Origin: Acidimicrobiia bacterium
GTDB lineage: Bacteria; Actinomycetota; Acidimicrobiia; Spongiisociales; ZC4RG35
Assembly (NCBI GenBank): GCA_965215185.1
Contig: OZ244034.1
Coordinates: forward strand, 2,720,001-2,784,000
Reading direction: 5' to 3'
Length of the DNA stretch: 64,000 bases
Shown piece after piece: positions 50,426 to 54,155 of this stretch (its first letter is position 1; each line of letters begins with the position of its first letter). A model generated the notes under the pieces. That model was given only the letters and a program-made list of their open reading frames with translations. It ran no database searches and was not told where the DNA came from. The position numbers and the translations under genes are program-made.

Positions 50426-50628
50426 CTGGTAGCGAGGCTAGTTACAAACTCCGCAAAAGGGGGTGGCATCAGGGTCCATTTCCCGCCTGGGGATAGCGGA
50501 GGGGTCTGGCTACGACCGGGGCGAATCAGAGACAAAATGGGATCACTACCTTGAATCTTGGGTGACCACCGGCGGGTTCCGGTTGGGTGAATGGCGTTGG
50601 CGCTTGGTTCTGTAGTCTTATGGGGGTC

Positions 50629-51555
50629 ATGGCGACCATCGCCTATCCCCCCATCCCGATTTGGGAAGTCGGACCCTTGCGGTTCTCGTTGCACGGCCTT
50701 TTTGCCGCCGTGGGTTTCTTCGTGGGCTTTTGGGCGGTGGCCCGTATGTTGGAGAAGAGGGGTTTTGACCCGGCTGGCTTCCACTCTTTGGCGGTTTGGG
50801 TATTGCTGGGCGGCCTCTTGGGTGCCCGACTTCTAACTGCTCCTGCCGCTTTGCTGGATGGCGCTGGCTGGGCGGCCCTCAACCCAGTAGTCGGCAACTA
50901 TTCGATAATGGGTGGATTCCTGGGCGGAATTGTGGTGGGAGTGTGGCGGATGCGGCGATTGGAATTGCCGACCCTTCCCATTTTGGATCTGGCTTCATTC
51001 GGATTGGCATGGGGAACGGTGGTGGGAAGGATCGGTGACTTGGCCATAGTCGAGCACCTGGGTCGGGCCACCGAGGTGGCGTGGGGATACGAGGTGCGGC
51101 CCGGCTACGACTTGGCCCCCCAGCACAACGGGTTGGAATGCACCCTCCTTGAGGCCGGACCGGATGGGATCTGCGGGGTTTACCACCATGTAGCCCTATA
51201 CGGCATGCTGGCCGCCGGGGCGTTGCTGGTTGTGTTATGGCTGATCCAACGGCGGGCGCCACTGCGATATGGACAACTCTTTTCGATCTGGGTGGTGTGG
51301 TATGGCCTGCAGAGGTTTGCGTTGGACTCTCTTCGGTTCGGGATGGGAGACGCCACCCTGGGGGGATTCACGTGGAATCAGGTGAGCGCCCTGGGTGGAT
51401 CGGTGTTGGGGGTGACGCTCCTGTGGTGGTTTGGAAGACACCGGCCAATGGTTTCATCCGAAGCTGATGAGAGCTTAGGAGCAACTTGGGCGATGGCCTC
51501 CGGCGAGGATGCATCAGCAGGCGGCCATTTGCAAGAGCCGCCCACTGGACAGTAA
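50629..51555 (+). CDS. lgt: Prolipoprotein diacylglyceryl transferase
   Basis: HGLF, LGARL, SIMGG, GRIGD...EHLG, YGLQRFALDSLR, NQ. Confidence 0.85.
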   Translation: MATIAYPPIPIWEVGPLRFSLHGLFAAVGFFVGFWAVARMLEKRGFDPAGFHSLAVWVLLGGLLGARLLTAPAALLDGAGWAALNPVVGNYSIMGGFLGGIVVGVWRMRRLELPTLPILDLASFGLAWGTVVGRIGDLAIVEHLGRATEVAWGYEVRPGYDLAPQHNGLECTLLEAGPDGICGVYHHVALYGMLAAGALLVVLWLIQRRAPLRYGQLFSIWVVWYGLQRFALDSLRFGMGDATLGGFTWNQVSALGGSVLGVTLLWWFGRHRPMVSSEADESLGATWAMASGEDASAGGHLQEPPTGQ

Positions 51556-51558: not shown

Positions 51559-51565
51559 TGCTCCG

Positions 51566-51628
51566 ATGTTGGTAGAAGAGTTCGATCGCTATTTCGTCTT
51601 TACCGGGCCCCGGCTCCGGGAGGCATAG
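51566..51628 (+). CDS. Phe/Tyr-rich attenuator leader peptide (20 aa)
   Basis: MLVEEFDRYFVFTGPRLREA: three Phe and one Tyr within codons 6-12, upstream of a chorismate mutase fusion gene. Confidence 0.75.
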   Translation: MLVEEFDRYFVFTGPRLREA

Positions 51629-51656
51629 CGCGGACCAACAACCGACGACTGACCTG

Positions 51657-51685
51657 ACCCGGAGCCCGGCTCCGGGTTTTCTTTT
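51657..51685 (+). terminator. Intrinsic terminator of the attenuator
   Basis: ACCCGGAGC-CCG-GCTCCGGGT followed by TTTCTTTT. The 5' arm can alternatively pair with GGCTCCGGG at 51612-51620. Confidence 0.85.
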
Positions 51686-51722
51686 GCCCGCAGCCGCCGG
51701 TTCCCAACAACACTAAAGAGGT

Positions 51723-52790
51723 GTGGAAGTGGAGAGACAAGCAACCAAGAAAAGCAGGTCACAGCGCACTGTGGTGCGGGTGGGGGACACCAGATTCGGA
51801 CGGGACCCGTTTCCGGTCATCGCCGGTCCCTGCGCGGTGGAGAGCGAAGAGCAGATCAACACCGTGGCAGAGGCAGTGGCCGAGAATGGAGGTTCCATTC
51901 TGCGAGCCGCGGCCTACCGCTCGGGTAACTCTCCCTATAACTTCAAGGGCTTAAAGCTGGAGGGAGCAAAACTGCTGGCGGCTGCTGGAAAACGGGTGGA
52001 TTTGCCGGTGGCAATGCCCATCATGGAGGAGCGCGACCTGGAAGAGTCAGGCGATTTGGTGGATATTCTGGAGATCCACCATGGGTCTATGCAGAATTTC
52101 GAGTTGTTGCGCGTCGCTGGTCGTTCCCAAAAGCCTGTGATGCTTAGACGCGGCCCATCGGCGACCATTGACGAGTTTCTGTGGTCGGTGGAATACCTGA
52201 TGGCTGAGGGAAACGATCAGATCATCCTGGTCGAGCGGGGCATCCGTACCTTTGGAACCGGCCATCGCGACACCTTGGACATCACCGCGGTCCCCCATCT
52301 GAAAGAGGTGTCACATCTCCCGGTGCTGATTGATCCCAGTCACGCCTCTGGTGGGGCGGCGCGGGTGCCGCCTTTGGCCCTGGCTGCCCAAGGGGTGGGC
52401 TCGGATGGGCTGATCGTGGAGGTCCACCCTCAGCCGGAAGCCGCCAAAACCGAAGGACCCCGCCAATTGTCTCTCACCGAGTTCGCCGAATTGATGGTAC
52501 AATTGGGCATTAGTCGGCTTCGTTCCGGCATCGATCTGGTGGATCGGGAAATCGTCAGGCTTTTGGCCCGCAGGCGACAGCTATCCCAGGAGATCGGCCG
52601 CGCCAAGGCCGACCGTGGCTGGCCTGTGAAGAGTCACCACCGGGAGGTGGAATTGTTGGAGGCGGTGCGGGAAGAGGCCATTGTTAACCAACTCGACCCG
52701 GATCTGATAGAGAGATTGTTCAACCTGGTGCTGGAGGGTTCCCGCCGGGCTCAAAGAGATATGCGCATTGATCCGGAGGAAGGAAGGTAA
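51723..52790 (+). CDS. Type I-beta DAHP synthase-like domain (degenerate active site) fused to a C-terminal AroQ chorismate mutase
   Basis: IAGPC.VES, ERGIRTF, DPSH, IVEVHP; C-terminal LRSGIDLVDREIVRLLARR...IGRAK...RE...SRRAQ. Confidence 0.9.
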   Translation: MEVERQATKKSRSQRTVVRVGDTRFGRDPFPVIAGPCAVESEEQINTVAEAVAENGGSILRAAAYRSGNSPYNFKGLKLEGAKLLAAAGKRVDLPVAMPIMEERDLEESGDLVDILEIHHGSMQNFELLRVAGRSQKPVMLRRGPSATIDEFLWSVEYLMAEGNDQIILVERGIRTFGTGHRDTLDITAVPHLKEVSHLPVLIDPSHASGGAARVPPLALAAQGVGSDGLIVEVHPQPEAAKTEGPRQLSLTEFAELMVQLGISRLRSGIDLVDREIVRLLARRRQLSQEIGRAKADRGWPVKSHHREVELLEAVREEAIVNQLDPDLIERLFNLVLEGSRRAQRDMRIDPEEGR

Positions 52791-52860
52791 GGCTCTTTTA
52801 CTGACCGCCCCGCTCGGCTAGCATCTTTGCGAAGTAGGCTTCGGATGCCGCCGAAGACCG

Positions 52861-52933
52861 GGCCCCGTCGTCCAGCGGCCTAGGACGTCGGCCTTTCAAG
52901 CCGGTAACGCGGGTTCGAATCCCGTCGGGGCTA
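52861..52933 (+). tRNA. tRNA-Glu (TTC)
   Basis: Cloverleaf with acceptor GGCCCCG/CGGGGCT, anticodon loop CTTTCAA, T-loop GGTTCGAATCC. No encoded CCA. Confidence 0.96.
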
Positions 52934-52954
52934 CTCTCTACGCAGTTGAGATAC

Positions 52955-53494
52955 ATGTCGGTACAGCTATACAACCGCTTTTTGTCGTTGCTGGTCCTTA
53001 TGGCCCTGGCGGCTGTGGTGGCCTTGGCGTTTCGTCCGGTGAGGCGTGCCGCAGTTGGTATGGGTCTGGGCGGGTCTTGGAAGTGGCCAGCGTTTGCGGT
53101 GGCTGCCCTGGCCACGGCGGGCAGCCTTATCTTCTCGGAAGTGATCGGCTATGAACCCTGTGAATTGTGTTGGTACCAGCGTATCGCCATGTATCCCATG
53201 GTGGTGATCTTCGGCGTGGATGTGCTGGGTGGGCAGTCCCGAACCCGCCGGTACGCTCTGCCGCTGGCAGTGGTGGGGTTTGGCATCAGCGTTTATCACT
53301 ATCTGGTCCAGGCTTTTCCCGCCGCCGGCGGAGGGGTGTGCGGCGCCGGGGTCTCATGCTCGGCCCGCTATGTGGAGGAATTCGGTTTTGTCTCCGTTCC
53401 CTTTATGGCCGGGGCGGCATTTGCCCTGATCATCGCTATCCTCCTGGCTTTCGGGCGACCGGTGATGACAGGAGTGCAGGCTGATGACGGCTAG
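52955..53494 (+). CDS. dsbB: Disulfide bond formation protein B (BdbC-like)
   Basis: PCELCWYQR, YH, second Cys pair, FGFVSVP. Confidence 0.92.
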   Translation: MSVQLYNRFLSLLVLMALAAVVALAFRPVRRAAVGMGLGGSWKWPAFAVAALATAGSLIFSEVIGYEPCELCWYQRIAMYPMVVIFGVDVLGGQSRTRRYALPLAVVGFGISVYHYLVQAFPAAGGGVCGAGVSCSARYVEEFGFVSVPFMAGAAFALIIAILLAFGRPVMTGVQADDG

Positions 53495-54155
53495 GAGCCA
53501 AAAGGCCAAGAGTCAAAGAAAGTGGGTTGTCATTGGGGGCGTGGCGGGGGCGGTGCTCATCGCCGGACTGGTAGCGGTGACCACCGTGAACAGCACCGCA
53601 CCGGACCCGGTACAGGTCACCGTGACCGGGGAACCTATCCCGATTCTTTCCAGCAATGTTCCGTTGGGCCAGGACATTGCCTTTGGCTGGGATTCTCCCA
53701 CTCTCAGTGGGTCGGACTGGAATGGCAATCCTGTGACCATCGATCCGAGCGACGGGCGTGCCAAATTGATCGTGTTCCTGGCGCATTGGTGTTCCCACTG
53801 TCAGGCAGAGGTACCCGAGGTACAGGCGTGGCTCAACCAGACCGGCGGGAACCCCGCCGTGGATATCTACGGAGTAGCCACTTCCATAGACCGCTCCCGT
53901 CCCAACTGGCCGCCCGGGGACTGGCTGGAAAGGGAGGGATGGACGTCGCCCACCGTGGTTGACAAGAACAACAAAGCAGCGACGACTTTTGGTTTGTCGG
54001 CCTTTCCCTATTGGGTGGTGGTGAACCCCGAAGGCAAGGTGGTGTACCGAATAGCAGCGGGTATCGGCATGGAGGGGATGCTTAACCTGCAGCAGTTGGC
54101 CACCCAGAGCATGGAAGATTTGGAAGCTTTCATCTCTCAGAGCCAGCAGAGCTGA
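53484..54155 (+). CDS. Membrane-anchored TlpA/thioredoxin-like disulfide oxidoreductase
   Basis: N-terminal TM, AHWCSHC, cis-Pro motif AFP. Confidence 0.88.
   Translation: MTARSQKAKSQRKWVVIGGVAGAVLIAGLVAVTTVNSTAPDPVQVTVTGEPIPILSSNVPLGQDIAFGWDSPTLSGSDWNGNPVTIDPSDGRAKLIVFLAHWCSHCQAEVPEVQAWLNQTGGNPAVDIYGVATSIDRSRPNWPPGDWLEREGWTSPTVVDKNNKAATTFGLSAFPYWVVVNPEGKVVYRIAAGIGMEGMLNLQQLATQSMEDLEAFISQSQQS

Follow-up and report, generated by a model that had tools for sequence, protein, structure and literature searches.

The window analysed here is a stretch of 64,000 nucleotides from the genome of an Acidimicrobiia bacterium (contig OZ244034.1). On its forward strand, an open reading frame at positions 51,723 to 52,790 encodes a protein of 355 amino acids, with GTG as the start codon. 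The protein joins a degenerate type I-beta DAHP-synthase (beta/alpha)8 barrel to an AroQ chorismate mutase (CM) domain. The barrel extends over residues 22 to 260 (positions 51,786 to 52,502 of the forward strand; PF00793 DAHP_synth_1, 187.7 bits) and the CM domain over residues 266 to 344 (positions 52,518 to 52,754 of the forward strand; PF01817 CM_2, 68.2 bits). This arrangement of barrel, linker and AroQ domain corresponds to the domain order of the C-terminal CM-linked DAH7PS enzymes. Across orthologs, the conserved start codon is an in-frame GTG at 51,729, two codons downstream of the listed start, which would give a protein of 353 amino acids, and an AGAGG Shine-Dalgarno sequence is located 7 nt before it. 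The shared start codon and the spacing of the Shine-Dalgarno sequence suggest that this shorter form is probably the true protein. The gene is monocistronic, with lgt (50,587 to 51,555) and a tRNA-Glu gene (52,861 to 52,934) as its neighbours, and it is preceded by a leader ORF and an intrinsic terminator that are described below.

Metatranscriptome contigs from three RNA runs of one study cover parts of the gene (51,704 to 51,924, 51,844 to 52,030, 52,245 to 52,410 and 52,677 to 52,900) with 95 to 99% similarity; these contigs are short, of low depth and possibly affected by DNA carry-over, they carry no information on transcript starts or levels, and we do not count them in favour of expression or attenuation.

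An AF2 model of the fusion protein had a mean pLDDT of 89.3. In a Foldseek comparison, the model matched 1vs1 with a target-normalised TM-score of 0.95 and 1zco with an rmsd of 1.2 Å, and the fold of the DAHP-synthase barrel is predicted to be intact. The CM domain is modelled as three helices (residues 263 to 298, 305 to 321 and 326 to 349) that are connected by short loops. A docking prediction of the barrel (residues 1 to 258) against a dimer of the CM domain (residues 262 to 355), run without controls, returned a score of 0.00, which speaks neither for nor against such docking.

Active-site residues of the barrel and the mutase domain

The barrel was aligned residue by residue to the solved I-beta DAH7PS structures 1vs1, 5j6f and 1zco. 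All motif replacements that had been listed in the initial annotation of the locus are present in these alignments: GGAFKPRTSPY is changed to AAAYRSGNSPY, QIGARN to EIHHGS, LKRG to LRRG and S-D to T-E. Retained are the motifs GPC (Cys37), ERGIRTF, DPSH (His207) and VEVH (Glu233), and the accompanying statement that the metal ligands are kept while the final Asp has become Glu agrees with the same alignments.

For a characterised I-beta enzyme, in which each residue number is lower by one than in the fusion protein, C36, H206, E232 and D243 are described as metal ligands, R60, K65, S119, R120, K141 and R171 as PEP-binding residues and R67, T68 and D243 as E4P-binding residues (PMC6362186). Transferred to the fusion protein, Cys37, His207 and Glu233 are kept as metal ligands and Asp244 is Glu. 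Among the PEP contacts, R61 and R172 are kept, K66 is replaced by R, R121 of the GAR motif by G and K142 of the LKRG motif by R. All three E4P contacts are altered (R68 to G, T69 to N, D244 to E). At each changed position the canonical residue occurs in at least 95% of 147 canonical I-beta barrels; the GAR Arg, the KPR Arg, the LKRG Lys and the metal/E4P Asp are each at least 97% invariant in this set, and the position of the KPRT threonine is occupied by Thr or Ser. Judged from this set, the pattern of motif losses is far from chance.

For the E. coli mutase, we take the active-site residues to be Arg11', Arg28, Lys39, Asp48, Arg51, Glu52, Ser84 and Gln88. The CM domain of the fusion aligns without gaps to the E. 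coli enzyme (1ecm) and keeps seven of these eight residues (Arg11, Arg28, Lys39, Arg51, Glu52, Ser84 and Gln88), Asp48 being Ser. The catalytic AroQ pattern (Arg, Arg, Lys, Arg-Glu and Ser..Gln), which had been described as kept from the sequence of the window, corresponds to these seven residues.

Automated classification treats the protein as an enzyme with two activities. It exceeds the curated NCBIfam cut-offs of TIGR01361 (DAHP synthase, 283.2 against 267.75) and of NF009239 (bifunctional enzyme, 300.4 against 279), and relatives carry the name '3-deoxy-7-phosphoheptulonate synthase' in their sources, which would speak for a still working, albeit unusual, DAHP synthase and hence for a true bifunctional enzyme. 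However, the GAR Arg, both the Arg and the Thr of the KPRT motif, the LKRG Lys and the metal/E4P Asp are all replaced, and sister lineages proceed to the loss of metal ligands (see below), so that we consider this reading extremely unlikely.

Chorismate mutases and DAHP synthases in the host and its relatives

The host genome (G000) is a single contig of 3.12 Mb with a completeness of 95.4% by marker genes. It encodes a second I-beta DAHP synthase with an N-terminal FL/ACT-like domain, which possesses every canonical motif and adjoins tyrA, so that the second canonical DAHP synthase for which the initial annotation had proposed a search does exist. A type II DAHP synthase was not found in the host genome. 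The same genome contains exactly one CM_2 domain, namely that of the fusion, and no AroH-type (CM_1) chorismate mutase. The fusion hence looks like the only CM of the bacterium, and since no other AroQ- or AroH-type CM was found in the genome, its CM domain would be needed for the synthesis of Phe and Tyr. The genes pheA and tyrA are both present. A role of the barrel as the supplier of a missing prephenate dehydratase (PDT) step was considered and rejected, because a PDT gene is present.

A similar gene content was detected in related genomes. The canonical paralog, again with every motif, is encoded in all 17 genomes of the genus. Among the 34 fusion-bearing relatives, the fusion is the sole CM_2 match in every genome (34/34), except for a second copy in G009 that is located on a 3-kb contig, is nearly identical to the gene of G033 and is probably a binning artefact. 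In G036, the degenerate fusion is the only I-beta match and a type II DAHP synthase is present. One genome of the order (G027) encodes a stand-alone CM and no fusion, which suggests, on the basis of this single genome, that the barrel may be dispensable in some lineages. Among public proteins, no close CM without a barrel was found; the single match was a fragment that still comprises both domains.

The co-occurrence of the two proteins raises the question of an action in trans, in which the barrel would be incorporated into the oligomer of the true DAHP synthase with the FL domain and the CM domain would act as a regulatory subunit that senses chorismate or prephenate. All 30 carriers of an apparently dead fusion among the 41 relatives also have a separate DAHP-synthase match, for which canonical motifs were confirmed only in the 17 paralogs of the genus, and the CM of Mycobacterium tuberculosis is reported to require a complex with DAHP synthase for high activity (PMC7762937). 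Nevertheless, the isolated barrel of the C-terminal fusion of P. gingivalis is described as monomeric in size exclusion chromatography (PMC12202928), and G036 combines its degenerate fusion with a type II enzyme, which belongs to a different fold family. We regard an action in trans as highly improbable.

Distribution and descent of the fusion

The fusion was detected in 34 of 41 related genomes. Based on its motifs, the barrel is canonical in three of these (G029, G031 and G040), partly degenerate in one (G034) and degenerate in 30. When 151 genomes of the class were sampled, the fusion was found in 18, all of which belong to the same order of Acidimicrobiia, and it was found in none of the 114 sampled genomes of other orders. 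Of ten newly sampled genomes with the fusion, G061, G109 and G120 carry the core-type barrel, G162 a canonical one and G128, G132, G139, G147 and G155 otherwise degenerate forms, while G173 was left out of the motif reading. The canonical fusion consequently persists in four genomes of the order (G029, G031, G040 and G162).

Several deeper degenerate lineages have gone further and have lost their metal ligands. In G025, the Cys is replaced by Thr, DPSH by DPAP and the Glu by Gly; taken together with G155, the replacements are Cys to Thr or Val, DPSH to DPAP and Glu to Gly or Arg. The corresponding changes are Cys to Gly, NPAP and Glu to Ala in G036, Cys to His and Glu to Gln in G023, Cys to Arg and APSA in G033, and GPSS and DPSG in G030. 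All of these lineages retain the CM domain.

A phylogenetic tree of 84 barrels was inferred with a quick IQ-TREE run. The canonical fusions of the Acidimicrobiia (G031, G029, G040 and P0122) formed one clade together with all degenerate forms (SH-aLRT 96), and the degenerate forms were nested within this clade with a support of 86. The Acidimicrobiia fusions were separate from the nine other C-terminal fusions in this tree, in which the deep branches are weakly supported. The simplest history compatible with these data would start from an active DAHP-synthase-CM ancestor and would involve an early loss of the GAR Arg together with Q117E, followed by lineage-specific decay.

Conservation and selection

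The best 120 homologs of the protein are 57 to 98% identical to it, comprise both domains and share the altered motifs without exception; several are labelled as Acidimicrobiia. As a reference for the conservation of the barrel, we used 52 positions at which at least 95% of the 147 canonical I-beta barrels share one residue; the degenerate representatives P0124, P0216, P0202, P0210 and P0249 were excluded from this set of barrels. In a core clade of 142 sequences, 35 of the 52 positions are kept, nine are partly kept and eight are lost outright (P67, R68, E99, Q117, R121, K142, C170 and Q247). The Lys of LKRG is replaced by Arg and the Gln of QIGAR by Glu in 142 of 142 sequences, and the GAR Arg is present in none of them. 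The 50%-cluster representatives P0124 and P0216 of this clade were excluded from the counts, as their C-termini are frameshifted and rich in Arg and Pro.

The two halves of the former active site differ in their variability. The PEP/metal side is altered yet frozen: Glu117 and Arg142 occur in all 142 sequences and Gly121 in 136, R61 and R172 are invariant, and Cys37, His207 and Glu233 are each present in 140 to 141 sequences. The E4P-side positions 67, 68, 69, 182, 244 and 247 have a mean entropy of 2.24 bits in the core clade compared to 0.23 bits in canonical enzymes, and they rank at the 79th to 92nd percentile of barrel variability in the core clade. At the positions of R68, T69 and D244 the entropy is 1.9 to 2.6 bits; residue 244, for instance, is Glu in 63, Ser in 32, Asp in 17 and Asn in 14 of the 142 sequences.

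Selection was estimated as pairwise dN/dS (Nei-Gojobori) between the 17 genomes of the genus, with 123 of 136 pairs being usable (dS of 0.05 to 1.5 in both genes). The median dN/dS was 0.078 for the barrel of the fusion and likewise 0.078 for the barrel of the true DAHP synthase from the same genomes, compared to 0.169 for the CM domain of the fusion and 0.127 for the FL domain of the true DAHP synthase. The barrel is hence under the same purifying selection as the working DAHP synthase of these 17 genomes. It had been proposed from the window to examine whether orthologs share the substitutions under purifying selection, and this is what the Arg and Glu replacements in every core sequence, the uniform lack of the GAR Arg and the dN/dS values indicate. 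Strain-specific decay or a pseudogene was rejected in view of the clade-wide pattern in combination with the dN/dS values.

The strict conservation of the PEP/metal half-site (E117, G121, R142 and the three metal ligands) seems to exceed what a pure scaffold would need. It may be speculated that the barrel is a non-catalytic allosteric domain that senses a ligand or a metal, and that its remodelled half-site tunes the CM by binding a metal or a small anion such as PEP, prephenate or a similar metabolite. Such a half-site would be composed of Arg61, Lys/Arg66, Glu117, Gly121, Arg142, Arg172, Cys37, His207 and Glu233. The invariance of R61, E117, R142 and R172 in the 142 core sequences and the near invariance of the three metal ligands are in line with this proposal, as is the report that occupancy and turnover at the barrel site of the P. 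nigrescens enzyme raise the CM rate more than twofold (PMC8408635). However, the deeper lineages retain both barrel and CM without these residues, and sensing cannot explain the retention of the barrel across the whole clade. We consider a sensory barrel, which is the main alternative to the reading proposed in the Discussion, unlikely. Restricted to the genus and family, a barrel that couples a metabolite of central carbon metabolism or of the pathway, or a metal, to the only CM of the cell is still rather doubtful. If a sensor does exist, it would represent an evolutionary inversion of the Bacillus-type enzyme, in which the CM domain senses for an active barrel, and the order would preserve living intermediates on the way from an active enzyme via a sensor to a mere scaffold.

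A further reading of the conservation pattern is that the barrel has gained a new catalytic function on a substrate that lacks the phosphate groups of PEP and E4P. In favour of this reading are the strong purifying selection and the conservation, within the core clade, of the metal triad and some of the basic pocket. On the other hand, the pocket residues vary by lineage and the E4P half is among the most variable parts of the barrel, whereas under a new activity one would expect a different set of residues to have become fixed, and the pathway to Phe and Tyr has no missing step, with pheA and tyrA being present. A newly acquired catalytic function thus appears very unlikely.

A leader-peptide attenuator upstream of the fusion gene

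The fusion gene is preceded by a leader ORF of 20 codons on the forward strand (51,566 to 51,628; MLVEEFDRYFVFTGPRLREA, stop codon TAG). Four of the 20 codons encode Phe or Tyr (at 51,581, 51,590, 51,593 and 51,599). An intrinsic terminator follows at 51,658 to 51,685 of the same strand, with the stem CCCGGAG / CUCCGGG and, downstream of it, UUUUCUUUU. In an alternative antiterminator pairing (51,612 to 51,666, forward strand), GGCUCCGGGAGG at the 3' end of the leader ORF (51,612 to 51,623) pairs with CCU..CCCGGAGCC (51,653 to 51,666). The latter is the left arm of the terminator, so that the two pairings compete. The antiterminator pairing is part of the minimum-free-energy fold of positions 51,560 to 51,722 (-62.6 kcal/mol, z = -2.12).

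These elements are conserved. A homologous peptide rich in Phe and Tyr is encoded at all 17 loci of the genus (16 with an ATG start and one, L019, with a GTG start, which was read from the alignment), and a similar Phe/Tyr-rich peptide was found ahead of the gene at 20 of the 27 other distinct loci from the order. The sequence blocks of the antiterminator are near-invariant across the 17 genus loci, and the terminator is kept at all of them, with single-base changes in the loop or the U-run in L014, L016, L017 and L020. The leader was also found ahead of all four canonical and presumably active fusions examined (L031, L033, L037 and L065), and the attenuator hence arose before the active site was lost. 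A search against Rfam revealed no known leader or riboswitch between positions 50,500 and 53,500 at E-values up to 1; it returned the tRNA-Glu and two chance-level matches.

Leader-peptide attenuators of genes for aromatic amino acids include the E. coli pheA leader and the aroR-aroF system of Corynebacterium glutamicum. The leader described here appears to resemble both of them, in that its short ORF is rich in regulatory codons and its terminator competes with an antiterminator pairing; it has no match to an Rfam family. Judged by its sequence features, it is a classic leader-peptide attenuator that was inherited from the active ancestor. The initial annotation had proposed that the Phe/Tyr leader and the fusion together form an undescribed control system for the Phe/Tyr branch point. 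The leader proved to be real and conserved, but it is not a new control system around a dead barrel, since it predates the latter.

Discussion

We propose, with a probability of roughly 0.7, that the barrel is non-catalytic and is kept as a partner that gives the sole CM structural support or activates it. According to this proposal, the fusion protein would serve as the chorismate mutase of the cell, with the CM domain as the working enzyme. AroQ mutases presumably act as dimers. The N-terminal barrel would have lost the binding of E4P and of the PEP phosphate and would produce no DAHP, and it would act as a folded, non-catalytic support of the AroQ domain that contributes to substrate affinity, to stability or to the conformation of the CM dimer. 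The protein would have originated from an active DAHP-synthase-CM enzyme, a form that is still extant in the same order of Acidimicrobiia. DAHP synthesis would then have been handed over to the separate I-beta enzyme with the FL domain or, in one lineage, to a type II enzyme. After this hand-over, the contacts to E4P and to the PEP phosphate could decay, while a loss of the barrel would have been impossible, because the CM would need it. Expression of the gene would be set by the Phe/Tyr-codon leader-peptide attenuator that stems from the active ancestor. The reversal of roles proposed in the initial annotation, with a dead or repurposed barrel, is supported by the shared substitutions, the dN/dS values, the canonical second DAHP synthase and the single CM_2 domain of the genome.

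Both the lack of DAHP-synthase activity and the dependence of the CM on the barrel are what we infer from these data, and the same applies to a role of the barrel as scaffold, activator or sensor. Related fusions provide a precedent for a CM that retains its need for a barrel. For the DAH7PS-CM enzyme of P. gingivalis, the isolated CM domain is reported to have a Km for chorismate of 207 µM compared to 19 µM for the full-length protein, which is approximately tenfold worse (PMC12202928), and for the enzyme of P. nigrescens, separation of the domains is described to attenuate both activities (PMC8408635). The domain cross-talk in P. nigrescens is reported to depend on an extended loop (PMC8408635), and given the short loops of the CM domain in our model, the coupling may differ in the Acidimicrobiia protein. 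Against a non-catalytic barrel it has to be considered that the replacements of K by R and of D by E are conservative and that R61, R172, Cys37, His207 and Glu233 are retained; residual or altered catalysis may occur in this genus.

The closest architectural counterparts are PniDAH7PS and PgiDAH7PS-CM, in which a short linker likewise connects an N-terminal I-beta barrel to an AroQ domain at the C-terminus, with a total length of approximately 350 to 366 amino acids, and in which the CM is described to perform more poorly without the barrel (PMC12202928, PMC8408635). Unlike the Acidimicrobiia protein, whose barrel appears to be devoid of substrate-binding residues, these proteins have active barrels that are inhibited by prephenate. 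A 2025 abstract states that the C-terminal DAH7PS-CM fusion is specific to periodontal pathogens, which suggests that the Acidimicrobiia fusion clade has so far been unrecognised. Our literature searches brought up no report on the Acidimicrobiia fusion, nor on a pseudo-DAHP-synthase that has a CM as its only fusion partner.

A degenerate I-beta barrel joined to a CM-bearing protein has been described for Shewanella oneidensis, in which an aroQ-pheA and aroA(I-beta) 'pseudogene' was termed 'bizarre' (Song et al. 2005, BMC Biol 3:13; PMC1173090). In contrast to the Acidimicrobiia protein, that barrel is located C-terminally on the P-protein and belongs to another lineage and another fusion event, and the passages of that report on the pseudogene give neither a selection analysis nor a function. 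Similar CM-PDT-ACT-barrel proteins of approximately 680 amino acids with degenerate motifs are represented by P0202, P0210 and P0249. The MtCM-MtDS system of Mycobacterium tuberculosis also involves an actinobacterial AroQ CM whose efficiency is reported to depend on a partner with a DAHP-synthase fold (PMC7762937); there, however, a CM of another AroQ subclass associates non-covalently with an active type II enzyme, whereas the partner is fused and appears dead here. Finally, the N-terminal CM-linked DAH7PS enzymes of Bacillus, Listeria and Geobacillus (5j6f, 3nvt) combine an I-beta barrel and an AroQ domain as well, with one domain serving the other (PMC8408635). While the CM is the regulatory module of an active barrel in those enzymes, here the CM would be the working domain and the barrel the accessory one.

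The names under which these proteins are stored are probably wrong. Since the fusion passes the NCBIfam cut-offs and its relatives are named as DAHP synthases in their sources, automated metabolic reconstructions of Acidimicrobiia probably include a non-existent DAHP-synthase isozyme.

As a partner of the CM without catalytic activity of its own, the barrel would be a clear natural case of an enzyme domain of a central pathway that became a pseudoenzyme and was retained. Since active barrels are found alongside partly and fully decayed ones within a single bacterial order, the course of their inactivation is amenable to direct tests. The fusion is also relevant to the question of why CMs of Actinomycetota and Bacteroidota rely on a DAHP-synthase partner. 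Should the barrel be kept solely for the CM, this dependence is sufficient to preserve approximately 260 residues under a constraint as strong as that on an enzyme.

Start codon and immediate downstream neighbours of the fusion gene

The start codon common to the orthologs of the gene for the degenerate barrel–chorismate mutase (CM) fusion corresponds to the in-frame GTG at window position 51729. The annotated alternative, the GTG at 51723, is no more than 1–2 nt downstream of the Shine-Dalgarno sequence, and in two related genomes (G008 and G010) the reading frame is closed directly upstream of the GTG equivalent to 51729. In two runs, RNA-library contigs have their left end at 51704/51705, about 20 nt past the U-run of the leader terminator; these are contigs of low depth from one study and are too little for interpretation. 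Downstream of the fusion gene and 3' of a tRNA-Glu gene, a DsbB-family membrane protein is encoded (52946–53494), and its gene overlaps that of a secreted redoxin/AhpC-TSA-like protein (53484–54155). Together, they look like a disulfide-formation pair.

The locus of the true DAHP synthase

The canonical FL-type DAHP synthase of the source genome is encoded on the minus strand at positions 1456–2469 of locus L001, which is situated at approximately 1.875 Mb of contig C1. In this enzyme and its 16 genus paralogs, the third metal ligand is Asp (I/VDVH), a position that is occupied by Glu in 97% of the canonical barrels. Near the aroA(FL)-tyrA pair, the minus strand also carries a 257-aa open reading frame with Cys-rich, zinc-ribbon-like motifs (L001, 2945–3718), which may represent a transposon-associated, TnpB-like fragment.

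Distribution of the fusion and related architectures

Genome G009 contains a second, differently degenerate fusion gene on a contig of 3018 bases (L040). As the tree shows this gene to be nearly identical to that of G033 (L030), it is probably a binning contaminant rather than a paralog. The barrel-CM fusion was absent from other genera of the source organism's family, f1 (G024, G041, G047, G070, G078, G082, G086, G116, G124, G166 and G181). These genomes instead have an open reading frame of approximately 700 aa, at L042, L069–L076, L078, L080 and L082. The whole frame was read for L042 alone and encodes CM, prephenate dehydratase (PDT), ACT and a canonical DAHP-synthase barrel; at the remaining loci, the check covered the barrel motifs only. 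Three protein representatives of about 680 aa (P0202, P0210 and P0249) are CM-PDT-ACT proteins with a C-terminal I-beta barrel, the motifs of which are degenerate (for example GPDT/NPCD and GPSV/DPSD). These are apparently dead barrels of the Shewanella type, and they seem to be independent of the barrel-CM clade of the Acidimicrobiia.
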